DNA from: a virus
Lineage: Duplodnaviria; Caudoviricetes
Length of the DNA: 62,698 nucleotides
Reading direction: 5' to 3' (one strand)
Virus record (IMG/VR): IMGVR_UViG_3300043403_000045
Location: 1 to 62,698 of that record
Shown here: piece after piece, positions 2,280 to 33,887 of the stretch
How the letters are laid out: the number at the start of each line of letters is the position of its first letter
Numbering within the stretch: the stretch's first letter is position 1
Notes under the pieces: model-generated
What the model saw: only the letters and a program-made list of their open reading frames with translations
What the model was told of the DNA's origin: nothing
The model's database searches: none
Program-made: the position numbers and the translations under genes

Positions 2280-2325
2280 TTAAGGAAAAGGTTTGTGCAT
2301 TGTTTCTTTTCAGGACGATTTTATC

Positions 2326-2622
2326 ATGAACAAACCTGAAGAATATAAACGCCGTTTTGTCACGGTGGTCTATGAAATAACAGACGATGTTGCGTGGCGC
2401 ACTGGCGGCAACCCGCTGCACTACGAACACCACGGGCTAAAATCCGTATGCGTGTCGGCGGGCGACCTCGCATCGCTCAACGAAGAAATCGAGGCCATCG
2501 TGCAGGGCGGCGAAGAACTCGATGCGGACAAATACGACGAGCTGCACACGAAGCACGTCATGTCTTCTTTTCCGGGCCGCCCTAACAAGGCTGTTATGAC
2601 TTCCCCGCACAAATTAGATTAA
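2326..2622 (+). CDS. Hypothetical protein, GC-rich cassette-like ORF ending in an attI-like element
   Basis: Abrupt rise in GC content; the C-terminus PNKAVMTSPHKLD is encoded by the shared element. Confidence 0.7.
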   Translation: MNKPEEYKRRFVTVVYEITDDVAWRTGGNPLHYEHHGLKSVCVSAGDLASLNEEIEAIVQGGEELDADKYDELHTKHVMSSFPGRPNKAVMTSPHKLD

Positions 2623-2628
2623 CTTATA
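2580..2628 (-). mobile_element. attI-like element, copy 1
   Basis: CCTAACAAGGCTGTTATGACTTCCCCGC is identical (28 bp) to 15332-15359. The minus strand ends ...CATAACAGCCTT-GTTAGGG. Confidence 0.6.
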
Positions 2629-5308: not shown

Positions 5309-5550
5309 ATAATAAAGAGTTAAATGAACTCCTAGAGGATTGCGTAATAATTGATAATCAAGGCAGTAGCGAGACGTTAATGCGTATTGTATTACATTGT
5401 GAGGAGAATGAAGAGCCATACCAAGTTATGGTTCCATGCCGTGCTGCATCAATTACGTCTTGGCAGCACGAACGCTACATATCTCGAAGTGAGGCCAGCC
5501 AACTTATTAAGAATAGCTGGGATTGCTGGAAGAGAATTTACACGAGTTAA
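5305..5550 (+). CDS. Hypothetical protein
   Basis: Translationally coupled on both sides. Confidence 0.65.
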   Translation: MNNKELNELLEDCVIIDNQGSSETLMRIVLHCEENEEPYQVMVPCRAASITSWQHERYISRSEASQLIKNSWDCWKRIYTS

Positions 5551-5816
5551 TGTTGCGCCGCACACCACTTAAAAGAATATCGGATAAGCACAAAGCAGAG
5601 CTTGTGTCTTATCGCAAGTTGCGCGATGACTATTTACGGTTTCATCCCACTTGTGAATTTGTGGGGTGTTTCCGTAAGGCAACCGACATTCATCACAAGG
5701 AAAAGCGTGGAAAGAATCTGAATAACGTCGAAACGTGGTGCGCACTTTGCCGCCCTCATCACGTATACATAGAAAATAATAAATCATGGGCGCGTGCGAA
5801 CGGTTGGTTGAAATAA
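5550..5816 (+). CDS. HNH endonuclease-like protein
   Basis: CEFVGC..ATDIHH...N...ALCRPHH; lies directly upstream of terL. Confidence 0.75.
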   Translation: MLRRTPLKRISDKHKAELVSYRKLRDDYLRFHPTCEFVGCFRKATDIHHKEKRGKNLNNVETWCALCRPHHVYIENNKSWARANGWLK

Positions 5817-8559: not shown

Positions 8560-8778
8560 ATGTGCTTCTTATATAAATTAAATCACATACTAATGAGCCC
8601 AATAGAATCCGCCAAGTTTTTACGAAAAACAATAGCCGCAAATAAAGTCGCTAAAGAAAAAGCGAAGACGTATTTAACTGCCGTTTTAAATCGGCAACCA
8701 AATGAATTAGAGATTAGGCATCAAATGATGTGCGATATTTATAAGGTGAAGCTCGTAAAAGGTAAAATAACAACATGA
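8560..8778 (+). CDS. Hypothetical protein
   Basis: Small ORF coupled to the next gene; true start may be 8593. Confidence 0.55.
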   Translation: MCFLYKLNHILMSPIESAKFLRKTIAANKVAKEKAKTYLTAVLNRQPNELEIRHQMMCDIYKVKLVKGKITT

Positions 8779-9197
8779 CAAATTCTGAGTCATCCAGAAA
8801 TATATCGTATTTACTAGAAAAACACATGCGGGCAATGGGGATCACACCGTATGAAAAAAAAGTACAGGAAGAAATGTTTTCTCGGCTAAAGCAAGAAGCA
8901 AGAAAGCAAGATGACTTTTTTAAGCGTTATGATAAGCCATCAGCACGGCGTATATTTAAGGACAAGATCATTCAACTACATGAGCAGAAATTAAGCACGC
9001 AAGCCATAGCGGATCAAATGAATGTAACAACAACCATTATCCTCGATGAGCTGCGCAAGGCAGGTTATGTTAGAAGGAAATCTAAAAATGAAAACACTAT
9101 TACTTCCGACACCAGTAATAACACAGATCAACCAACTAAGCTGGCTAACAAAATTAGAGCTAAAGCTAGCCCAAAAAAGAGCCAATCAAGAGATTAG
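8775..9197 (+). CDS. HTH-containing protein
   Basis: LSTQAIADQMNVTTTII. Confidence 0.6.
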   Translation: MTNSESSRNISYLLEKHMRAMGITPYEKKVQEEMFSRLKQEARKQDDFFKRYDKPSARRIFKDKIIQLHEQKLSTQAIADQMNVTTTIILDELRKAGYVRRKSKNENTITSDTSNNTDQPTKLANKIRAKASPKKSQSRD

Positions 9198-9320
9198 TGA
9201 AAGAGAACTTTTGCTATTAAACCAAATAATCAAAAAACAAAATGAACTGTATACAAAGAATTACTAAAATATCAGTAATGCCAGAAAGAGTAAAATTTAT
9301 GCCGAGTGAAATTGCTAAAC

Positions 9321-9941
9321 ATGAAAAACAAAGTTGAATTAATTGGGCACTACGGCTCAGATGAAACCCACGCTTTATCCGCATGGACGAGCACATCGCG
9401 GGAATTAACTGATGAAAAGCAGAAACGCATTCCAGCTATTCTTGGGATGTTGGCTGAAAATATGCACCATACTCCATTTGAAAAAAGCACACTTCATTTT
9501 TTGGTGCGATGTGAAACAGCTAGTCATATACACATTCTTAAGCACCGCATTGGGGTGAGCGTTAACGGAGAATCATCTCGCTATAAGCAATTATCCACAC
9601 CAACCGCTATTATCCCTGACGATTGGCCTCCAGTGCTTCAATCGGCGTTAAGCAATCATTTTGAGGCATCCGTAGAGCTATATGAAAAAGCATTGGCTGC
9701 GCTTACGCCCACGCTAGGAAGGGCACGCGCAAAAGAATCTGCTCGATTTTTCTTGCCATATGCAAATCAACTAACGTTAGATGTTTCTTTTAATTTCCGT
9801 TCCTTTGTCCACTTCTTAGGTCTTCGTAATAAGCCTGAAGCACAAAAAGAAATTAGGGAAATTGCGCAGGAAATGCTACAACAGGTAAAGGCAATAAAAG
9901 GGAATCCATTTCAGTATACAATTGAAGCGTTTAAACTATGA
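9321..9941 (+). CDS. thyX: FAD-dependent thymidylate synthase
   Basis: HHTPFEK, KHRIGVSVNGESSRY (ThyX motif), KESARFFLP, NFRSFVHFLGLR, AQKEIRE. Confidence 0.95.
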   Translation: MKNKVELIGHYGSDETHALSAWTSTSRELTDEKQKRIPAILGMLAENMHHTPFEKSTLHFLVRCETASHIHILKHRIGVSVNGESSRYKQLSTPTAIIPDDWPPVLQSALSNHFEASVELYEKALAALTPTLGRARAKESARFFLPYANQLTLDVSFNFRSFVHFLGLRNKPEAQKEIREIAQEMLQQVKAIKGNPFQYTIEAFKL

Positions 9942-10002
9942 ATGATATATTTATAGCATTTATAGTTGGAGTAATAATCTCTTATCTAATAATAATAAAA
10001 AA

Positions 10003-10779
10003 ATGAACACTGGAAAAGAAAAAAAAGAACACGTAGTTACCGAAATTTATTTCCCGTTAGGAAGTGATGTTCCCTATTTGCGCAGAACGAGCAAGCCGAT
10101 GCAGTGTGATGATCCTGAGCTGCAAACCTGTTCTGCGGAAAATTATGACAAATGGTTAAAGGTAACCGATGTACCTAGTGACTTAGCAGGATTTCAACAT
10201 GTTGTTATTTGGCCACCACACAGGGGTGACCTGATGGTCGTACAGCAATTTACGTGTCAATGGTTTACTGATGAGGAAATCAAAAATTCGCATTTGTATG
10301 TTAATTTTGATTCTTATAAAGCGTACCGGAAGATTCCCGTAGCCAACCATGCATCTATTGCATCGCCTGAAGTTAAGTCTCTAATTGAAGAGCATAAGAA
10401 AATCCAATTAGACCCTAAGGGTTCCGAAGGCAAGAAAAAGCCACAGCTTCAGCTTATTCCGCCCGTATTCAATATACAAGTGGCAGATGCTTTAGCCTTT
10501 GGCGGAGAAAAATATGGCCCTTGGAATTGGCGCAAGAATAAGGTAGAGTACATGACATACCTAGGGGCAATGAAACGGCATATAGACGCCCTGCTAGAAG
10601 GTGAGAATACGGCACCTGATAGCGGCGTACATCACCTAGGCCACATTGCTGCGTCTTGCGCTATTGTGCTCGACGCCACCAAGCAATGCACCTTAGTAGA
10701 TAATCGACCAACGATTCCTAATCGTGTTACAGGCGACGGTGGCGCATACACAGGAGTTGAATCACCATGTCGGACCTAA
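10003..10779 (+). CDS. dATP/dGTP diphosphohydrolase-domain (DUF5664-like) protein with an N-terminal extension
   Basis: KPQLQLIPP..ALAFGGEKYGPWNWRK..AMKRH..DSGVHHLGH. Confidence 0.8.
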   Translation: MNTGKEKKEHVVTEIYFPLGSDVPYLRRTSKPMQCDDPELQTCSAENYDKWLKVTDVPSDLAGFQHVVIWPPHRGDLMVVQQFTCQWFTDEEIKNSHLYVNFDSYKAYRKIPVANHASIASPEVKSLIEEHKKIQLDPKGSEGKKKPQLQLIPPVFNIQVADALAFGGEKYGPWNWRKNKVEYMTYLGAMKRHIDALLEGENTAPDSGVHHLGHIAASCAIVLDATKQCTLVDNRPTIPNRVTGDGGAYTGVESPCRT

Positions 10780-12756: not shown

Positions 12757-13179
12757 ATGGCGTCCAAAAATCAAAAAACTAAGCAAGGCCGAGGCTCGCG
12801 CTTTGGCATTAAAGCTCCTTCGGAATCACAGATAGGTTCCGCCTTCTATCGGTGGTGGTGTATGGCCTATAAAGGGCTAGGGGTGCCAAGCGCAAGCCTC
12901 TTGTTTCATATTCCAAATGAGGGAGCAGGCGGTAATCCGATCCGTGGAGCAATGCTTAAGCGTCAGGGCGTAGTGAATGGTGTTCCAGACTACTTTCTTG
13001 CCGTTGCCCGCAAGGGATTCAATGGGTTATTTATTGAGCTAAAGAAAGACACAGGAAGGGCTTCCAAAGAACAGGATAAAATAATTGTCGAATTAACTTG
13101 TCAGGGGTATCTAGCTTGTGTCTGCTATTCGTTCGAAGAGGCAGTAAATTTAGTTGAAGGCTATCTTAAATCAAAATAA
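12757..13179 (+). CDS. VRR-NUC domain nuclease
   Basis: ESQI..LFHIPNEG..GVVNGVPDYF..LFIELKK..GRASKEQ. Confidence 0.85.
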   Translation: MASKNQKTKQGRGSRFGIKAPSESQIGSAFYRWWCMAYKGLGVPSASLLFHIPNEGAGGNPIRGAMLKRQGVVNGVPDYFLAVARKGFNGLFIELKKDTGRASKEQDKIIVELTCQGYLACVCYSFEEAVNLVEGYLKSK

Positions 13180-13183
13180 ATCC

Positions 13184-13969
13184 ATGCACTGGTACAAATA
13201 TAATGAAGACGGCACAATTGAAAGCCGTTACGACGCTGACTTGCGCGAAGCTCGCAAGCAAAAGTTATTTATCTCTATCACTACAGTTGACAAAGAAATT
13301 CGCGCTAATTGGGCGATAGGCGACTATCTGCAACGCCAAACAGTTAAGGCGTGCCTAGATAACCCATCTTGGGCTAACGAAGATCAAAACGATTATTTAA
13401 CAAGAATTCGCATTGAGGCAGGCAAGCATTCCAAGAATGCCGCATCGAAAGGTGATGAAATCCATAAGGTTTTTGAGGACTACCCTCAAATGCCTTTAAA
13501 TCAAGATTACCTACCTTATTATGACCTTGCTAGCAAGTATTACGATACGCACATAATCAGCACTAGACATCGCGAAATCATGCTGGCACACCCACGCATT
13601 GGTATTGCTGGGCGTATGGATTTTATTGGAGAACACAAAAAGTATGGTCCTGTAATTATAGATTGGAAAACACAAGAGTTTAAGCACAAAGATAAGTCCA
13701 AGACTGGGCCACGCAAAGCAGGTTTCTGGGAAAGCTGGCCACGTCAACTAGCCGCAGGCAGGTATATGTACTGGCTTAAAACCGGAGAGTGGCGTAAATG
13801 TGTTTCAGTAGCTATTGATTCTAAAGAAGCTGGAATGTATGAAGAATACTTATGGACTGATGAAGAAATCGATAAAGCATATCAAGAGTTCCTGTGCCAT
13901 GCTTGGTTATATTTTACATCCAAGAACTATTGGCCATGCGGAAAGTGGGAGTTGGAGTTTGAATTTTAA
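13184..13969 (+). CDS. PD-(D/E)XK exonuclease
   Basis: SITT, GDEIH, AGRMDFI, IIDWKT, QLAA. Confidence 0.8.
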   Translation: MHWYKYNEDGTIESRYDADLREARKQKLFISITTVDKEIRANWAIGDYLQRQTVKACLDNPSWANEDQNDYLTRIRIEAGKHSKNAASKGDEIHKVFEDYPQMPLNQDYLPYYDLASKYYDTHIISTRHREIMLAHPRIGIAGRMDFIGEHKKYGPVIIDWKTQEFKHKDKSKTGPRKAGFWESWPRQLAAGRYMYWLKTGEWRKCVSVAIDSKEAGMYEEYLWTDEEIDKAYQEFLCHAWLYFTSKNYWPCGKWELEFEF

Positions 13970-14027
13970 TAGCTTAAAAATAAAAACCATTATCTTTACC
14001 GATAGTCGCCCACTTTAGAATTATTAA

Positions 14028-14360
14028 ATGAAAATATATAACCAAATTGTCGACGAATACTTTAAAAGTCATCCCGAAGCGTGGGTAGAAGTGAAGCGGG
14101 CAGACGAAAGCATTCAGAGCGTGATCGCTCGCGAGGAATTAGCGCGACTACATCACACAAACGGCATCGATCCATCTATGTTGGAGTGCGCTCTAATCAA
14201 GCTCAATAAGCCAACAATTCCTGAGCAACTCCACGACGACTATCAGCGCGTATACACGGAACACCGAGCTACTGGCAAACGTGGCTTGGTGCGCGAGATC
14301 ATCGTCGCCAAAACCGCAGACGATTCTTTAGCGAACGACCAAGATCACCCACGCGAATGA
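14028..14360 (+). CDS. Hypothetical protein, distal ORF of cassette array 2
   Basis: Ends ANDQDHPRE inside attC-like site A. Confidence 0.7.
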   Translation: MKIYNQIVDEYFKSHPEAWVEVKRADESIQSVIAREELARLHHTNGIDPSMLECALIKLNKPTIPEQLHDDYQRVYTEHRATGKRGLVREIIVAKTADDSLANDQDHPRE

Positions 14361-14418
14361 AAACTCAAGAACAACAAAAAGAAGCCGAGCCCGCGTTGGG
14401 GGTGGTGGCTGGTTCGGC
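14330..14418 (-). mobile_element. attC-like site A
   Basis: Minus strand: GCCGAAC-cagcc..CCCCAACGCG..loop..CGCGTGGGTG..GTTCGCT. Confidence 0.7.
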
Positions 14419-14641
14419 TGCTCGTGGAACGCCAGCCAGCATCGCAAAGCGACTCCGCTGGCTCTCGCACCGTATGCAATCCGTCGGGGCGGAAATGGAA
14501 TACTACGGAGGCTTTGGAGAAATCGGAGATCACGGGCGCGAAATGCAGGGAGCCGCTAGCATCGCATTTTGCTGGGCAAAGGGCATCGAAGCATCCTTGG
14601 CGAACACCCGCTCTTCAGCTACGCCGAACCATGGACGCTAA
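14357..14641 (+). CDS. Hypothetical cassette protein
   Basis: Starts in the loop of site A and ends in the loop of site B; GC-rich. Confidence 0.7.
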   Translation: MKTQEQQKEAEPALGVVAGSAARGTPASIAKRLRWLSHRMQSVGAEMEYYGGFGEIGDHGREMQGAASIAFCWAKGIEASLANTRSSATPNHGR

Positions 14642-14690
14642 AATTAAAACTGACATCGTAGAGGCGTTGCGCTGTGAGGCTTTGTTCGGC
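14599..14690 (-). mobile_element. attC-like site B
   Basis: Plus strand: GGCGAAC..TCAGCTACGCC..loop..GGCGTTGCGCTG..GTTCGGC. Confidence 0.6.
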
Positions 14691-14877
14691 TCTTCACCGC
14701 TTCGTGATGGGCATCGGTTGGACCGATCTTGGCACCGCTTTCGCGCTGATCGTGGTCGGCAACATCTGCCTCGGCGATGGCCACCTGTGGCGTGGCCTGT
14801 GGTGCTGGATGCTCGGCATCACGGTCTACGTCCGTGCTCCTCGCCCGAACCCGACCAGTGAGCCACGCGGAGAATAA
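14674..14877 (+). CDS. Small membrane cassette protein
   Basis: Two hydrophobic segments; ends PNPTSEPRGE in site C. Start is GTG 14674 or ATG 14707. Confidence 0.6.
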   Translation: MRLCSALHRFVMGIGWTDLGTAFALIVVGNICLGDGHLWRGLWCWMLGITVYVRAPRPNPTSEPRGE

Positions 14878-14931
14878 CCCTATGAAAAAAACACCTGAGA
14901 TTGCCCGCGTTGGCTCTACGGATTGTTCGGC
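14844..14931 (-). mobile_element. attC-like site C
   Basis: GTGAGCCACGCGG pairs with CCGCGT[T]GGCTC[T]AC, leaving two extrahelical bases; bounded by CCCGAAC and GTTCGGC. Confidence 0.75.
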
Positions 14932-15118
14932 CTGCTGGTGGGCAGTTTTCCCATGCGGCTGGAAGTGGGAAATCGGTAGCATGACTCGCGAGAACGAATC
15001 GCCGATTGCGATTTTCAGAATCAAGACGCACGCAACCGACTACAAAAATGTGATGTGGCCCAACCTTGGGGAAGTGCGCCCATGGCCGAACGCCCCTGAT
15101 CAGCCACGCGGAAAATGA
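14882..15118 (+). CDS. Hypothetical cassette protein
   Basis: ATG lies in the loop of site C; ends PNAPDQPRGK in site D. Confidence 0.65.
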   Translation: MKKTPEIARVGSTDCSACWWAVFPCGWKWEIGSMTRENESPIAIFRIKTHATDYKNVMWPNLGEVRPWPNAPDQPRGK

Positions 15119-15175
15119 GCACCGAAAAACAGGACGGAGCCCCGCCCGCGTTGGGCTGTATCGGGTTGGTTAGGC
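15085..15175 (-). mobile_element. attC-like site D
   Basis: GATCAGCCACGCGG pairs with CCGCGT[TG]GGCTG[T]ATC; bounded by GCCGAAC and GTTAGGC. Confidence 0.75.
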
Positions 15176-15336
15176 GGTTTGATTTTGATCGTTGCTGCGC
15201 CCGGATCGCCATCGCTCAACAGCGCATGAATATCGCTCCGACCTGCGACGAAACCGCTTACTGGTGCCGCATCTGGCGCGCCCGCCGTCGCATCTACCGA
15301 ATTGCCTCAAAACGTGAACTCCACCTTTTAGCCTAA
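15115..15336 (+). CDS. Hypothetical Arg-rich cassette protein
   Basis: ATGA coupling in the loop of site D; the stop is the TAA of GCCTAAC in the attI-like element. Confidence 0.6.
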   Translation: MSTEKQDGAPPALGCIGLVRRFDFDRCCARIAIAQQRMNIAPTCDETAYWCRIWRARRRIYRIASKRELHLLA

Positions 15337-15380
15337 CAAGGCTGTTATGACTTCCCCGCCTAAATAAGAAATACTTATGA
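15331..15380 (-). mobile_element. attI-like element, copy 2
   Basis: 47/50 identical to the reverse complement of 31622-31671; minus strand ends in GTTAGGC. Confidence 0.65.
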
Positions 15381-15928
15381 GACTTAAAATAGACAGAGAT
15401 CATTCCAAGCAACCAATTAACGGTTGGTCTTTTCGTGAAGAATTTGGAGTGACCCTAAAAGAAGATTCATTAAATGAGATGCTAAGGCGAATCGTGCGAT
15501 TCAGGGAAAGCAACATGTTACCCGTGGGAGATCCAGAACATGAGCTTGCACTACAATACTCGCAAACTCATCCTCATCTAGTAGTAAGAACAGAATCGTG
15601 TATTGTAAAGGAGTCTCGTGAAATGCTAGAGTTCATGCAATGGCTTACAGATATTTGGAAATGCCCCCCAAAGCTGATTTCCGATAAGGCAGAAATTCAG
15701 AGGCGCTCCAAAGCGTGCATATCTTGCAAATGGAATGATTCCGATTTTGCTTGCACCCCTGATAACATGAGGCGTATCTATGCAGTTTCAGGTGCGACAT
15801 CAAGCGATAGAATACACCGATGCGTAATACATGGATGGCACAATATCGTTGGATGCCGATTAAGTAAAACCGAAAAAAATGAACATCAGCCTGAGCATTG
15901 CTGGGCTGGTGAAGTACCTAAATTATAA
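15377..15928 (+). CDS. Cys/His-rich hypothetical protein
   Basis: CISCKWN and HCW; the start codon lies within the attI-like element. Confidence 0.7.
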   Translation: MRLKIDRDHSKQPINGWSFREEFGVTLKEDSLNEMLRRIVRFRESNMLPVGDPEHELALQYSQTHPHLVVRTESCIVKESREMLEFMQWLTDIWKCPPKLISDKAEIQRRSKACISCKWNDSDFACTPDNMRRIYAVSGATSSDRIHRCVIHGWHNIVGCRLSKTEKNEHQPEHCWAGEVPKL

Positions 15929-17226
15929 TGAAACCATCAAAAACTACTAACGAAGCTACACTATTAGGGTGTTTTTTAATTGATAATAATCTAATAGATA
16001 AAGCTGTCGCATCGGGATTGACAAAATCCCATTTCATTGAGCCTTGGCAATGTCAGTTCTTTGAGAAAGCAATCAAGATACGTGCCACTGGAGGAGTAGT
16101 CGATATTACTAGCTTAGCAGTAGAGGGAGTACCTTATGCAGATGCGATTACAGTAGAAAATGCAACTGGCACATCAATGCCGTACGCATCCGCGTTAGAT
16201 CAAGTACTTTGGGCATATTCCAAAAGTAAAATAGATATGCTATGCCTACAAGCCAAAGAAGTTATAAAGACAGATAGCGCAACTGACGATGCACGAAAGC
16301 AGGTGGCATCGCTAGTAACTCAGATGCAGGCGTGGATTGCGGACAAAAAAGATACGGCTAGGACTTGCGAGGAGATAGGTGCAGAAGTAGAGCAGTGGGC
16401 TCAAGACCTGATTGATGGCAAACCAGATAACCGTGTTAAAGTCGAATGGCCTTTGCCTACTATGAATGAGAGATTTGGCCCTATAATGCCGAATGAGTTA
16501 TGTTGCTTAGCGGCTCGTCCAAAGGAGGGTAAGACTTCCGTGGCCCTACAGATTATTGGGCATAACTTAAAGCGCGGACTAAAAATGGCTTACTTCACTA
16601 TGGAAACCAGTGATAGTGCCACACTGAAAATGATTGCCTCCCAGATGGCTCAAGTTGATTTGAGGAATATAGCTAACTCACCTAGGGACAAACAGCAAAA
16701 TTTCCTAAAGTATGTTAAGAAACTCCGTGCATCTAAGAACTTAGCTATTTTCGAGAAGGATATGAATATACTAAGTATTGAGGCGAGATGTCGCATGCTT
16801 AAGGCTGGCATGCAGCCCGATTTTATTGTCATAGACCACTTGCATCTAATTCAGAATGACTTTGGGGATAAGCAATATGAGAAGATCACTGATAGCGTTA
16901 ATCGGATAATCGAGCTGCGCAAACACATGGGATGTGCCATCATCCTATGTTTACAGCTAAATCGCGCTAATGTGAACGCAGAGCGTGCCCCCCGTGCATC
17001 TGACGCAAAAGACTCAGGCGCAATTGAAGCCGCTGCCCATCGCATGGTTATCCCTTATCGCCCACCTAATGATTTTATGGATCAACCACAAGTAGGCCCA
17101 GAGGCTTTGATGCGATCAACATACGACTATTTCTTCATTCAGGACATTTGCCGAGATGGGCCTAGCGGAGTAGTTAAGGCCACCTATTTATCTCAAATAA
17201 CAACCTTTATAGATTGCAATAAATAA
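15928..17226 (+). CDS. dnaB: DnaB-like replicative helicase
   Basis: NEATLLG, AARPKEGKT, FTME, IVIDHLHLI, QLNR, DAKDSGAIEAAAH. Confidence 0.9.
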   Translation: MKPSKTTNEATLLGCFLIDNNLIDKAVASGLTKSHFIEPWQCQFFEKAIKIRATGGVVDITSLAVEGVPYADAITVENATGTSMPYASALDQVLWAYSKSKIDMLCLQAKEVIKTDSATDDARKQVASLVTQMQAWIADKKDTARTCEEIGAEVEQWAQDLIDGKPDNRVKVEWPLPTMNERFGPIMPNELCCLAARPKEGKTSVALQIIGHNLKRGLKMAYFTMETSDSATLKMIASQMAQVDLRNIANSPRDKQQNFLKYVKKLRASKNLAIFEKDMNILSIEARCRMLKAGMQPDFIVIDHLHLIQNDFGDKQYEKITDSVNRIIELRKHMGCAIILCLQLNRANVNAERAPRASDAKDSGAIEAAAHRMVIPYRPPNDFMDQPQVGPEALMRSTYDYFFIQDICRDGPSGVVKATYLSQITTFIDCNK

Positions 17227-31289: not shown

Positions 31290-31625
31290 TTATTTTATCT
31301 TCCAATAGCCTCTAGCAATAGCCAAAGTAGCGCGCTCAAGCGAGCCCGTGCGCCAGTGTTGGCCGTCGATAATTAAATCCACCTGATTGATACGCCCACG
31401 AAGTGAACGGATGATGCGCCAAGTGTGTATCGAACCATCTGCACGGTAGTTTATCCCCTCGCGAATTAACTCCCCGCGCTTGTCGTTAAGTGCCCGCATG
31501 CGGAGGGTGTGTAAGTCCGGCCCTCGCTGCATGCGTTCCCCTGCTTGCACAGCCTGAGAGCGTCGCCCCCATTCGCGAGCGACTGCGTGGCGTTTGTGCT
31601 TCGGGATATTTTGTAGTGCTATCAT
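31290..31625 (-). CDS. Hypothetical Arg-rich protein
   Basis: Start codon lies within attI-like copy 3. Confidence 0.65.
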   Translation of the reverse strand: MIALQNIPKHKRHAVAREWGRRSQAVQAGERMQRGPDLHTLRMRALNDKRGELIREGINYRADGSIHTWRIIRSLRGRINQVDLIIDGQHWRTGSLERATLAIARGYWKIK

Positions 31626-31671
31626 AAGTATTTCTTATTTTGGCGGGCAAGGCATAACAGCCTTGTTAGGC
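31622..31671 (+). mobile_element. attI-like element, copy 3
   Basis: TCATAAGTATTTCTTATTTTGGCGGGCAAGGCATAACAGCCTT-GTTAGGC. Confidence 0.65.
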
Positions 31672-32267
31672 GAACGAAGATGCCGCATGGCGGTGTTGCC
31701 GTAGCGGGGATGCTTGTCGCGGAAGTAGCTGCCGGGATATTCGAGGCGCACGAAGCCGAATCCGGCTCCGCGCCAGCAAGGATGCACCGACACGATGCGC
31801 GCCTCGACATGCTTCCCCGCGCCGAGGATGCGGAATTGGTCGTCGAGCACGCACATGCCTTTGAGGCCGTGATGGTCGATGTTGTTGCGCACGGAAACGG
31901 AACGCCCAACCAGTCCGCCAGAGCCAACGCCGTCAGCGTCGGGGGCGAGTTCCAAAGTCTGTTCAGCGGCGTGGCTCATCGGAAGCGTTCTCCCGAATGA
32001 AGTCCCCGCGCAGATTTCGCATGGAGATTCCGGCAGCTTTAAGCTGTGCGGGCGTGGCTCATCGGAAGCGTTCTCCCGAATGAAGTCCCCGCGCAGATTT
32101 CGCATGGAGATTCCGGCAGCTTTAAGCTGTGCGGGCGTGCGCTCATTGGTTTCGATCACCCGTTCTTCGCAGTTCACGAAGAGGCGGAAGGTTGTCATTT
32201 GTTCGGGAGATTCCTCGCGGAGTGCGTCCACAAGGGCGTCGATTGCTGTTTGTATTTTCGGTGTCAT
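31635..32267 (-). CDS. Two cassette ORFs (MTPKIQ.. from 32267 and MSHAAE.. from 31979) fused in frame by an 83-bp duplication
   Basis: Removing one repeat unit gives ...RENASDEPRR-stop and a separate downstream ORF ending PNKAVMPCPPK. Confidence 0.6.
   Translation of the reverse strand: MTPKIQTAIDALVDALREESPEQMTTFRLFVNCEERVIETNERTPAQLKAAGISMRNLRGDFIRENASDEPRPHSLKLPESPCEICAGTSFGRTLPMSHAAEQTLELAPDADGVGSGGLVGRSVSVRNNIDHHGLKGMCVLDDQFRILGAGKHVEARIVSVHPCWRGAGFGFVRLEYPGSYFRDKHPRYGNTAMRHLRSPNKAVMPCPPK
31904..31993 (+). mobile_element. attC-like site E
   Basis: GCCCAAC-cagtc..GAGCC[A]ACGCCG..loop..CGGCGTGGCTC..GTTCTCC. Confidence 0.8.
31968..32139 (+). repeat. 83-bp perfect tandem duplication
   Basis: 31968-32050 equals 32051-32133, with GGCGTG microhomology at the junctions. 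Confidence 0.9.
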
Positions 32268-32285
32268 ATCGGTATTTCGGAAGAG

Positions 32286-32413
32286 GGAGAACAAGGCGTG
32301 CGAGCTAGGTGCCCAGAGCCAACAGGCGCGGGCGGCACGTTTTCGATAGGTTTCATAGAGTGCTTTCGTCTGGGGTTTTCTGCCGCGCCTGCGGCTCATG
32401 CACGGTGTTCGGG
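32286..32413 (+). mobile_element. attC-like site F
   Basis: GGAGAAC..GAGCC[A]ACAGGCGCGG..loop..CCGCGCCTGCGGCTC..GTTCGGG. Confidence 0.75.
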
Positions 32414-32694
32414 TGAAGCAGGCGCAGGCGGGCGCGGATTTCGGCCCTGATTGCGTGGCGGGCTGCTGCGGCTCCTTCCATGTATTCACTGCACACGGCT
32501 CCGCCGGGGCGCTCCCCGCAGAAGCGGAGCAGCCTTTTCAGTTCTCCCACAGCTTCACCCGAACCCCCGCCCACACCCAACGCGCCTGACTGGGCCTTCT
32601 GTTCGCGCATGGCGTCCACGCGCGCGGCCTGTGAGGGCGTCAGCATGTCGGGATTCGTCGAGAGGAAATTGAGCAGTTTATTGCGGGCGGTCAT
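32353..32694 (-). CDS. Hypothetical cassette protein
   Basis: MTARNKLLNF... reads through half-site G and ends HPNTVHEPQARQKTPDESTL in site F. Confidence 0.55.
   Translation of the reverse strand: MTARNKLLNFLSTNPDMLTPSQAARVDAMREQKAQSGALGVGGGSGEAVGELKRLLRFCGERPGGAVCSEYMEGAAAARHAIRAEIRARLRLLHPNTVHEPQARQKTPDESTL
32558..32607 (+). mobile_element. attC-like half site G (degenerate)
   Basis: CCCGAAC..CACACCCAACGCG left arm; partner arm not found. Confidence 0.5.
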
Positions 32695-33061
32695 TGGAGG
32701 TAGTCGGTTCTGCGCTCGCGGCGCGTTGGTGATCAGTGTCCACGCTTGCGAGCACTCCCGCGCATTCGGCGAGTTGTTCGGCCAGCTTGTCGCATCGGTC
32801 GGCATAGTGCTTCGCCCACTTCGCTTGATCGTCAGCGTCTGTTTTTGCATTTGTTAGCATCGCCTGCATTGCGCGCATTTGAGCCTCTGAGTAGCCGTCA
32901 TAGAAAGCTTGCGGTTGCTGTGAGGCGTCCGCTGCCTCCACCCATTGGGTTAGCCGAGTTTCGATTTCGCGAGCTACGCGGGCGGGTATCACGTCGCGAT
33001 CCCCGTATCGGTCGGCACTTTTTTCACACGAGTCTGTTATTGGTGTTTTTGATATTGTCAT
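32678..33061 (-). CDS. Hypothetical protein
   Basis: MTISKTPITD..VAREIE; GC-rich. Confidence 0.7.
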   Translation of the reverse strand: MTISKTPITDSCEKSADRYGDRDVIPARVAREIETRLTQWVEAADASQQPQAFYDGYSEAQMRAMQAMLTNAKTDADDQAKWAKHYADRCDKLAEQLAECAGVLASVDTDHQRAASAEPTTSNDRPQ

Positions 33062-33080
33062 AGGTTTAAGATTTTGTGTC

Positions 33081-33506
33081 TCAGGTGCTCGGAGAAACAA
33101 GGCGCCGGTCGAAATTTAGATCCATTTGAGCATCTATTGCTGCGCGGATGTCGCGGGTGTTTCCCGTCTGATTTGCGGGCAGGCCGATGCCCCATCCGCG
33201 CTCTAGCAGCCCATCAAAGTCATACCCCCAATCTTCAAGCCAATCAATGCGCTTCTTATCCTCGCAAAGAACGGCGATTGCTTCATCTGTTTTTAGTCCT
33301 CCTGCATGATTCGTAGCACCTTCGAGCACACGGATGCGCGAAGCTTGGTTTTTGATTTTCTCGCGCATTACAGCGGCCTCGCTTTCAAGCCGAGCTATTT
33401 TATCGTCTTTCGTTGAGGCCAAGACGAATTGGCCGTTTTCCCATGTTCCTTGCATATTGTGTTTTCGTTGAGTTTTTAAGAGGTCGAGCCATTGCCTTAC
33501 AGACAA
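33081..33506 (-). CDS. Hypothetical protein
   Basis: Coiled coil, EDKKRIDWLE..RAAIDA; true start may be 33455. Confidence 0.65.
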   Translation of the reverse strand: MSVRQWLDLLKTQRKHNMQGTWENGQFVLASTKDDKIARLESEAAVMREKIKNQASRIRVLEGATNHAGGLKTDEAIAVLCEDKKRIDWLEDWGYDFDGLLERGWGIGLPANQTGNTRDIRAAIDAQMDLNFDRRLVSPST

Positions 33507-33542
33507 CTCACTTCGCTCGTGTCTGAAGAGCGTTTGTTAGGC
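33484..33542 (+). mobile_element. attC-like site H (degenerate left box)
   Basis: CAGAC[A]AC..GTGTCTG..GTTAGGC. Confidence 0.55.
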
Positions 33543-33817
33543 CATGCTTGCTCGTGCATCGCGTTAACGAAGGCGGCGAGTGCTTCCGCGCCATCGTCGC
33601 CGAGATAGAACATATCGCCGTCGCCCGAGTGCGTTTCGAGCGTAATTGGGTTTGTCCCGTCTGCGGCGATTATGGCCGCGACATGCGGACGCTTGTAGTG
33701 CGGTTTCATTGCGTGAAATTCGATTTTCCACGGTGCGGGAAATCCTTCCGTCAGCGCAGCAAAGAGCACTGAACCGGGCGTATACCCAACGCGGGAAGTG
33801 TCAGTTGTACTTTCCAT
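33497..33817 (-). CDS. Hypothetical cassette protein
   Basis: MESTTDTSRVGYTPGSV (attC-arm-encoded leader, half site 33768-33795) to ..WPNKRSSDTSEVSCL. Confidence 0.7.
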   Translation of the reverse strand: MESTTDTSRVGYTPGSVLFAALTEGFPAPWKIEFHAMKPHYKRPHVAAIIAADGTNPITLETHSGDGDMFYLGDDGAEALAAFVNAMHEQAWPNKRSSDTSEVSCL

Positions 33818-33887
33818 TATTTTTTGATCCCTAAACCCTGCACATCCTCTTATTTTCTTCAATAAAATAATTAAAACAAATTGTAAG

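Follow-up and report, generated by a model that had tools for sequence, protein, structure and literature searches.

The DNA analysed here (referred to as the window) is the whole of the IMG/VR virus record IMGVR_UViG_3300043403_000045, a member of the Caudoviricetes. The record is 62,698 bp long, carries direct terminal repeats and has a completeness rating of 100%. It encodes tail-fibre, head-decoration, and other virion proteins, a DnaB-like helicase, an exonuclease, a VRR-NUC nuclease, and ThyX. When its 92 open reading frames (ORFs) were compared with Pfam and PHROGs, most of the genes received no family assignment. We describe a short region of this genome, called array 2 (14028–15380), in which five small plus-strand genes are interspersed with four imperfect hairpins of about 93 nt and followed by a terminal element of about 50 nt. 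An initial annotation of the sequence had taken this region for an integron-like cassette array in a phage that has no integrase of its own.

The GC content of the genome is about 0.41–0.45, and the GC-rich islands that matter here lie at 14.0–15.3 kb and 31.6–33.9 kb. The value is 0.546 at 14001–15000, against about 0.41 in the flanks. The annotated picture of a GC-rich block of five small ORFs with four AAC/GTT hairpins of about 90 bp was thus accurate: five plus-strand ORFs and four junctions are present. The genes run in the same direction as the flanking phage genes, and those for the exonuclease, the VRR-NUC nuclease, and the helicase (identified by Pfam and PHROGs) adjoin the array. Inside array 2, neither a promoter-like site nor a plus-strand terminator-like site was detected. 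The cassettes are very small (about 240–270 bp). The features of the array are as follows; here and below, a slash within a motif marks the predicted crossover, and a slash within brackets marks alternative bases or residues.

14028–14360, plus strand: gene 1, 110 amino acids (aa), a shortened member of a cassette-borne protein family of 156–192 aa
14328–14420, plus strand (the bottom strand of the site): predicted attC site J1, predicted crossover 14335/14336 (CGAA/C)
14357–14641, plus strand: gene 2, 94 aa, from a large unnamed family of small proteins
14597–14692, plus strand: predicted attC site J2 (degenerate), predicted crossover 14604/14605
14631–14877, plus strand: gene 3, with two candidate frames
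14842–14933, plus strand: predicted attC site J3, predicted crossover 14849/14850
14882–15118, plus strand: gene 4, 78 aa, with a weak match to PHROG 12692 (E 9.3e-5)
15083–15177, plus strand: predicted attC site J4, predicted crossover 15090/15091
15115–15336, plus strand: gene 5, 73 aa
15331–15379, plus strand: attI-like element, GCCTAA/C AAGGCT GTTATG.., reaching to the ATG of the next gene (15377); predicted insertion 15336/15337

All four junctions follow a common plan: ..CGAAC, about 12 nt, CCACGCG, an A-rich loop, CGCGTTGG, about 11 nt, and GTTCGG... The A-rich loop holds the stop codon of one gene and the start codon of the next, twice as an overlapping ATGA. R boxes (xxCGAAC ... GTT(C/A)GGC) are found in four of the four sites, and their AAC and GTT are invariant, or nearly so, over 24 aligned sites. 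Folded as single-stranded DNA, the sites have an outer stem formed by AAC and GTT, which an internal loop separates from an inner stem that bears one or two bulged bases and is capped by a large loop. In the inner stem CCACGCG pairs with CGCG-T-TGG, the T (column 81) being unpaired in 24 of 24 aligned sites. The extrahelical bases (T, sometimes G) always lie on the 3′ arm of the plus strand, in keeping with the earlier remark that they occupy one arm. The internal loop between the R and L stems measures about 9–12 nt per side; the terminal loops are variable (25–50 nt). The 11-mer GCCCGCGTTGG occurs three times, and it is read as PALG in genes 2 and 5 and as ARVG in gene 4. Since two frames are used, the conservation lies in the DNA and not in the protein.

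The alignment of 24 sites comprised four from this genome, eight viral, and 12 genomic sites, and its structure was drawn by hand. This structure was paired in 86.1% of the cells, compared to 81.0 ± 0.9 in shuffles (0 of 500 as high), and the pairing dropped to 30–49% once the partners were slid. Changes on both sides were seen in 7 of 18 pairs. The covariation score was 0.137 against 0.056 ± 0.013 for shuffled alignments (0 of 500 as high; slid controls lower), with the caveat that the seed sequences had been collected with a sequence pattern. Rfam at gathering thresholds returned no match.

A covariance model built from the 24 sites (R1) gave 72.4 bits for J1, 71.7 for J4, 64.9 for J3, and 24.5 (E 2.6e-4) for J2. 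Three further sites (68.6, 18.1, and 10.1 bits) were found in a second array of the window, described below. Elsewhere in the genome, nothing exceeded 10.1 bits except the reverse strand of J3 (19.8 bits). The family was followed into other genomes with DNA patterns. A first pattern gave 55 loci in viral contigs, close to a rough estimate of the chance number (made with no shuffle). By eye, 11 of these 55 loci (on 10 contigs) showed the full architecture, including a downstream GGTT(A/C)GGC that was absent from the pattern. A stricter pattern gave 27 loci in species-representative genomes, 11 of which were labelled Opitutaceae or other Verrucomicrobia metagenome-assembled genomes (MAGs). When R1 was run over 36 loci (10 of the 55 viral ones and 26 from genomes), 130 matches were obtained. 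At a threshold of at least 23 bits, the Opitutaceae loci held one-strand arrays of 23 (L068), 13 (L066), and 12 (L064) sites spaced 300–900 bp apart; several viral loci carried arrays of three to nine sites. With R1, the scores of J1, J3, and J4 (65–72 bits) were like those of the best bacterial sites (60–83 bits).

A second model (R2) was built from 59 bacterial array sites only, all from Verrucomicrobial chromosomal arrays and themselves collected with R1. R2 recovered J1 (49.7 bits, E 4e-12), J4 (41.6 bits), J3 (31.1 bits), J2 (20.6 bits), and a site of the second array (41.8 bits), all on the gene-sense strand. As a model made from bacterial sites finds the phage sites, the hairpins of array 2 belong to the integron attC family. 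It may be noted that the sites in four MAG contigs (L074, L086, L087, and L067) were of the phage type, with A-rich loops containing ATG, and not of the bacterial type; these contigs may be prophages or wrongly binned phage contigs.

The integron integrase model TIGR02249 (cut-off 265 bits) matched proteins of three genomes that carry sites of this family: G003 (375.8 bits), G005 (split matches of 184.8 and 170.9 bits), and the viral record G010 (280.2 bits). In all three, R1 sites immediately precede the 5′ end of intI and share its strand. Both the finding of four sites by R2 and this adjacency to IntI in three of three genomes agree with the integron attC architecture that had been recognised initially. 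Passages of two papers (PMC3458562, PMC6393395) describe the attC bottom strand as the one that is folded and cut by the integron integrase. Since the R1 sites lie upstream of intI on its own strand, the plus strand of array 2 corresponds to the integron bottom strand; the initial annotation, which had read the minus strand as the integron top strand, was therefore right on this point. In the bacterial arrays, the longest frames ran opposite to the site strand and between the sites in 40 of 45 intervals, which is the classical layout, and elements like the hairpins of array 2 were non-coding.

The G010 record is itself of interest. It is 45.9 kb long, has direct terminal repeats, and is rated 100% complete. 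A full integron lies in it (locus L037, 587–3697), consisting of an IntI gene and five attC sites. The IntI is 35% identical to that of Opitutus, and the cassette genes, one of which encodes a helix-turn-helix protein, are co-directional with intI, on the bottom strand.

Taken by sequence and fold, the four hairpins can be identified as attC sites of the Verrucomicrobia (Opitutaceae) integron type. That attC types follow taxa is stated in sections of PMC8352920, a study in which Verrucomicrobia are not covered.

If cassettes exist as circles cut at G/TT, then the bases before AA/C must pair with the cassette's own GTT box. The ends of cassette 5 (GTTAGGC at 15169–15175 and GCCTAAC at 15331–15337) were complementary at 7 of 7 positions, those of cassette 4 (GTTCGGCC at 14925–14932 and GGCCGAAC at 15084–15091) at 8 of 8, and those of cassettes 3 and 2 at 6 of 7 each. 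The complementarity first noticed in these cassettes was thus recovered base by base, and it proved to be general in related arrays. Over 28 viral cassettes, GTTxxxxxx of one site and xxxxxxAAC of the next were complementary at 127 of 168 positions, while complementarity within the viral hairpins was 107 of 216; shuffles of the cassette ends gave 75.2 ± 5.2, and none of 5000 reached 127. For 43 bacterial cassettes the count was 144 of 247, compared to 118.4 ± 4.8 after shuffling. This genome alone gave 17 of 24 for cassette ends versus 13 of 30 within hairpins. Rare variants of the ends also matched exactly (AGGTCGAAC, TAGTCTAAC, and CCGCATAAC). By this comparison, the complementarity of the ends shows that the cassettes were moved as circles via a crossover at G/TT.

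The crossover point bears a fixed relation to the reading frames of the genes. In genes 1, 2, and 4, as in the membrane-like reading of gene 3, the AAC falls in frame and encodes Asn. It is followed by 8–12 codons and a stop, all of which come from the next cassette. Hence, with the crossover in frame about nine codons before the stop, each gene borrows a short tail and a stop codon from the next cassette. Among 50 viral and metagenome sites with an upstream frame of at least 40 codons, AAC was in frame at 34 (binomial p 5.8e-7), and at eight more the frame closed with the TAA of CTAAC; a long frame was lacking at ten additional sites. In bacterial arrays, the AAC was distributed over the frames as 13, 11, and 4.

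Homologues of the individual genes bear on the same point. Gene 1 has ten homologues at E ≤ 3e-16, and the record name of one of these assigns it to a Verrucomicrobiota MAG. Aligned to them, gene 1 has two internal deletions, and the C-termini of the family part right after ..S(L/S)(A/S/P)N, the N of which is the AAC of the R box. The last eight codons of gene 1 are supplied by J1, and its own attC is missing at the 5′ end; it is the remnant of the cassette most distant from the attI-like end. The start codon of gene 2 lies in the J1 loop and overlaps the gene 1 stop (ATGA), and its tail beyond the Asn (AAC, 14603–14605) is encoded by J2. Although gene 2 matched no Pfam or PHROG family, it has 236 representative clusters at E ≤ 1e-3. 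Its closest homologues (82–86% identity) agree with it from ..AGSA.. to ..SL(A/P)N and diverge outside both ends. Gene 4 has one homologue, 65% identical across residues 20–70, with a match that ends at ..RPWPN. Thus, for genes 1, 2, and 4 the similarity of homologues ceases at the R-box Asn codon, and the existence of these homologues implies that the ORFs on the bottom strand are real.

Gene 3 can be read in two ways. A frame that begins with the ATG at 14631 in the J2 loop is Arg/Pro-rich and ends at 14861, while a second one, from a GTG at 14674 to 14877, encodes 67 aa, is membrane-like, and has the usual ..PN..EPRGE tail. A frameshift or a sequencing error may account for the conflict, or translation may begin internally at the GTG. 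Gene 5 starts in the J4 loop, where it overlaps the gene 4 stop (ATGA), and ends with the TAA within the GCCTAAC of the attI-like junction; a site in locus L074 is similar to its N-terminus and attC. The proteins of array 2 are unrelated in their bodies (five compared).

The attI-like site at the end of array 2 reads GCCTAA/C AAGGCTGTTATG. Two further copies of the element are present in the window, one of them at the end of the second array:

31622–31674, minus strand: attI-like copy 2 (92% identity), at the end of the second array
2581–2627, plus strand: attI-like copy 3 (87% identity), behind a single GC-rich gene
31630–33860, minus strand: second array, longer and GC-rich, in which three attC sites are detectable and which opens with a half site (33764–33800)
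31902–31995, minus strand: predicted attC of the second array (R1 68.6 bits, R2 41.8 bits)
32556–32647 and 32297–32415, minus strand: weaker predicted attC sites of the second array (R1 18.1 and 10.1 bits)
31293–31625, minus strand: gene for a very basic protein of 111 aa, directly behind the attI-like element of the second array

The three copies become alike exactly at CCTAA/C, and the likeness persists as far as the ATG of the following gene. In the second array, too, cassette ends match (CACCCGAAC at 9 of 9 positions, GGGAGAAC at 8 of 9). Homologues of the 111-aa protein, which form 33 clusters, all metagenomic, are encoded directly behind arrays in five other viral loci and ten metagenome contigs. 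R1 sites were found upstream of this gene in four of the four viral loci searched and in 6 of the 10 metagenome loci. A motif xAAC/AAGG(C/T).G(A/T)TA.. precedes these homologues, and the sequence upstream of the AAC is unrelated between loci; L112, L113, and L115 have an identical site and gene behind three different upstream sequences. The conserved sequence begins at xAA/C in the three copies of this genome and at 11 other junctions (nine that were aligned, together with L056 and L103).

When the last attC was compared with the junction, the match was 9 of 9 in L108, 8 of 9 in L112 and L111, 7 of 9 in L115, and 6 of 9 in L102; L110 was left out, as its GTT box could not be placed. Matches scored by eye were 8 of 9 in L103, 9 of 9 in L027, 8 of 9 in L056, and 9 of 9 in G010, where the junction lies beside a real intI. 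The last cassette of G010 ends in GCGCCTAA/C, with 9 of 9 positions matching its own attC, and its junction (AAC followed by AGTGATTAAGC) resembles that of L110 and L111 (AAC followed by AAGTGATTATGC). Because different cassettes abut the 50-nt element at xAA/C and the junctions match the last attC, the element behaves as a cassette insertion site, with no integrase gene adjoining it in this genome. The initial designation of an attI-like end element was therefore upheld, with two more copies here and the same junction in other contigs. An attI site proper lies beside intI and binds its cognate integrase; no intI is found next to the element in this genome, whereas in G010 a similar junction does adjoin the IntI gene.

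An exact 18-mer of the element matched two viral contigs (L004 and L005). The L004 match was judged to be due to chance as it falls within a long open coding stretch. A 25-mer had no match in metagenome contigs.

Some features of the other two copies may be mentioned here. The gene at 2293–2622 (plus strand), which forms array 1, is single and GC-rich, ends in attI-like copy 3, and has no R1 match nearby. Its motifs HHGLK and PNKAVM recur in the gene that comes last in the second array, and the two genes share the frame in which they run through the element. In the second array, three genes have no detectable sites between them, and an 83-bp tandem duplication (2.1 copies, 31968–32146) repeats part of an attC arm and shifts the reading frame.

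To look for an integrase, the genome was searched at two levels. Neither Pfam nor PHROGs gave a recombinase, PF00589 included, among the 92 ORFs, and a six-frame scan of all 62,698 bp with PF00589 gave no match at E ≤ 1. The claim that this complete genome has no recognisable tyrosine recombinase thus withstood both searches. A complete integron, in which intI stands beside attI and an array, is not present here. What is present is four attC sites within 850 bp and no PF00589 anywhere in the complete genome, which is the arrangement of a cluster of attC sites lacking an integron integrase (CALIN). The cassettes depart from the classical kind, which has top-strand ORFs between the sites and is expressed from the attI side, in having bottom-strand ORFs that extend across the sites. 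Three other viral genomes rated at least 96% complete (G008, G011, and G014) also have arrays or the attI-like module without PF00589; the records examined that were this complete or had terminal repeats numbered five, G010 and the present genome included.

We consider it highly probable that array 2 is a genuine integrase-less array of integron cassettes (a CALIN), located in a phage operon of the early or replication type, with IntI supplied in trans. As the phage has no recombinase of its own, the gain, loss, and shuffling of cassettes would need IntI from elsewhere, either from a Verrucomicrobial host integron or from a co-resident phage; G010 is an example of a phage that could be such a source. 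During infection, the IntI of the host or of the co-resident phage would fold the plus-strand hairpins, excise cassettes by attC × attC recombination, and insert them at the attI-like sites. The A-rich attC loops would serve as translation start regions, and transcription would presumably read through from an upstream phage promoter toward the attI-like site. Both the activity of the arrays and the source of the integrase are predictions of this scheme.

Several results weigh against this interpretation. Contigs from four sequencing runs, two of them low-share runs with short pieces only, showed no joints in the array region, though contigs cannot reveal rare excision products. A 151-nt contig of depth 2 has the body of gene 4 unchanged and diverges left of 14923, just before the GTTCGG box. 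A break upstream of this box is likewise seen in the close homologues of genes 2 and 4, and a second breakpoint at this position is not predicted by a simple one-crossover model. The complementarity of cassettes 2 and 3 falls to 6 of 9 when nine bases are scored, and in the second array the attI junction agrees with the last cassette at 7 of 9 positions only. The fold z-scores were +0.43 for J1, +0.29 for J2, −2.60 for J3, and −1.38 for J4, so that the folding energy is unremarkable for J1 and J2, and RNAalifold, when unaided, predicted just an 8-bp core. The longest-frame strand test that was clear in bacterial arrays was weak in viral ones (19 of 30 intervals). ATG was counted in 28 of 50 viral sites versus 16 of 48 bacterial sites, a comparison that does not discriminate because the site consensus itself contains ATGAGCC; the strands could not be told apart by GC at codon positions either. 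At about 42% GC, the phage backbone differs from the Opitutaceae loci (56–66%), and with this mismatch the attC type is the sole basis of the host assignment. Finally, no relative of the DnaB-like helicase was found among viral contigs, and so no sister phage with which to compare cassette content.

One more contig from the runs should be recorded. It is 395 nt long (depth 6.1, one run) and matches J3 from 14848 rightwards with an 11-nt insertion, while its left side differs and ends in ..GCCT/AAC. It looks like another cassette joined at the R box; being metagenomic, it may stem from another phage.

The signs of decay in the arrays make a partly fossil state a real alternative, although we regard it as the less likely one by a good measure. 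On this explanation a bacterial integron or a phage with IntI was where the cassettes were put together; they then arrived by ordinary homologous or illegitimate recombination between phages, and no integrase acts on them here any longer. It would account for a phage without an integrase, for the degenerate J2 (24.5 bits) and the two weak sites of the second array (18.1 and 10.1 bits), for the loss of attC from gene 1 and from the gene at 2293–2622, and for the half site and frame-breaking 83-bp duplication of the second array; a frameshift in gene 3, if there is one, would fit as well. It accounts less well for three of the four sites scoring as high as the best bacterial ones, for an attI-like site that occurs in three copies with the junction each time at AA/C, and for the arrays or attI-like modules of G008, G011, and G014, which likewise lack PF00589. 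Moreover, in other contigs an identical attI-like site and gene is found with different cassettes, which points to recent turnover there. It is improbable, in our estimate, that the phage instead encodes a recombinase that cannot be recognised by sequence, be it the 111-aa protein or another of its relative-less genes. The 111-aa gene does sit behind arrays, placed and oriented like the intI of an integron, its product is very basic, and its AlphaFold model (pLDDT 87) had no clear fold match (best Foldseek E 0.087, best VIA Z-score 4.0); most genes of the genome have no family, and NCBIfam returned none for the genes adjoining the attI-like sites. A protein of 111 aa is, however, far below the size of any known tyrosine or serine recombinase, and arrays 1 and 2 have the attI-like site without the 111-aa gene. 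In G010 a true IntI occupies the same place beside a similar junction (AAC followed by AGTGATTA), and the sites here are of the same family as the IntI-linked bacterial sites.

Two explanations do without an integrase altogether. T4-type phages have promoter stem-loops that flank shuffled genes, and the hairpins of array 2 might likewise be portable homology or regulatory elements, used in general phage recombination or as RNA structures, and not integrase substrates. The location of the sites on the mRNA sense strand, the start codons they hold, the exonuclease, VRR-NUC nuclease, and helicase genes next to the array, and the breaks of homologues at both conserved boxes are all in line with such a role. 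General recombination leaves the complementarity of the cassette ends unexplained, a complementarity that 0 of 5000 shuffles reached, and it does not explain why the same site family adjoins IntI in three of three genomes; in addition, there was no Rfam match and no promoter-like site in the array. We therefore hold this to be very unlikely. That the repeats are nothing but conserved N- and C-termini of paralogous small proteins was suggested by the tails ..PRG(E/K) and the N-terminal ..ALG..GS.., which recur in several genes, but is refuted by the frame differences and retains next to no probability. The same DNA is read in different frames (PALG versus ARVG), the stems covary, the five protein bodies are unrelated, and the same elements are non-coding in bacterial arrays. 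An integrase-less integron cassette array remains the interpretation that we prefer.

The initial annotation had also known of no description of such an array for phage operons. That remark is out of date, since phage CALINs were already published in 2023 (PMC9892861). From the portions of that paper used here, Qi et al. reported CALINs in virulent and temperate phages, and five of six attC sites tested from virulent phages recombined with IntI1. The likeness to array 2, on the same portions, is in attC/cassette arrays without an integrase on which a bacterial IntI is able to act. The differences are several. The attC family of array 2 is of the Verrucomicrobial chromosomal type, and a term search of PMC9892861 gave no mention of Verrucomicrobia or Opitutaceae. 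Here, a single genome holds three arrays that all end in the same attI-like site, and an integrase-less attI-like insertion site is not described in the consulted portions of the paper. As far as these portions go, the phage cassettes reported there have the usual bacterial orientation, same-direction cassettes being given as typical of bacterial arrays, while those here have bottom-strand genes, start and stop codons in the loops, and an in-frame crossover. Integrase-mediated insertion of cassettes outside att sites in bacterial genomes was described, in what we drew from the preprint, by Loot et al. (bioRxiv 10.1101/2022.09.11.507474); insertion by IntI away from its gene is a possible origin of the three attI-like sites, although what recurs here, unlike in the material drawn from that preprint, is a conserved element of about 40–50 nt in several viral contigs.

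The sedentary chromosomal integrons among our loci (L064, L066, and L068, and the IntI-linked G003 and G005) have the same R and L boxes, bulged T, internal loop, and variable terminal loop as array 2, and likewise one-strand arrays with complementary cassette ends. The textbook example of a sedentary chromosomal integron is the superintegron of Vibrio. Bacterial cassettes have a top-strand ORF between the sites and GC-rich hairpins as terminal loops; the phage sites, in contrast, have A-rich loops with ATG, bottom-strand ORFs across the sites, and no intI. The integron of G010 has the same attC family and bottom-strand cassette ORFs, and differs in that G010 encodes IntI and the present genome does not.

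Full-text literature searches by word matching, judged from titles and the beginnings of abstracts, did not turn up bottom-strand genes with loop starts, an in-frame crossover, or an integrase-less attI-like site in phages. Within the reach of these searches and of the sources cited, integrase-less attC arrays of phages are already known, and what we did not find described are the bottom-strand genes, the loop starts and stops, the Asn crossover, and a conserved attI-like site without an integrase, often adjoined by a small conserved gene in the place of intI.

Integrons are known mainly as bacterial gene-capture devices, and the phage attC clusters of 2023 were treated as a route for bacterial cassettes. 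The cassettes described here look designed for phage operons, as suggested by their inverted genes, loop start codons, and in-frame crossover; dedicated insertion sites are present, and an integrase is absent. With more reserve, and granting it somewhat less than an even chance, we propose that freshwater phages of one lineage, which probably infect Verrucomicrobia, have remodelled the integron to handle accessory genes in the style of a phage. Such a system would have its own pool of very small bottom-strand cassettes, loop starts, the in-frame Asn crossover (by which whatever cassette comes next would provide the tail and stop), several attI-like sites, a borrowed integrase, and the 111-aa protein often in the place of intI, and phages would exchange cassettes while infecting hosts that carry integrons. 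The arrays, if active, would provide a mechanism, dependent on a host enzyme, for the fast turnover of small early phage genes, a class that often holds anti-defence functions. From the findings come a testable rule for where the gene content of related phages should break, as well as sites and integrases for bench experiments.

Other observations on the genome and its relatives are as follows. The stretch 13000–17000 had no blastn match in INPHARED, and the terminase model PF03237 gave no match in five viral records, this genome included. Homologues of gene 1 and of the 111-aa gene sit together on one contig of 64,328 bp. A small ORF resembling HNH endonucleases lies at 5523–5816 (plus strand), and one that weakly matches a PHROG labelled ‘transposase’ (E 5.6e-4) at 8775–9197 (plus strand); neither belongs to a recombinase type with known activity on attC sites. 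ThyX (window 9306–10779, plus strand) adjoins a protein with the N-terminal domain of dATP/dGTP diphosphohydrolases (PF18909), and with this pair the phage may alter the nucleotide pool or its DNA bases.

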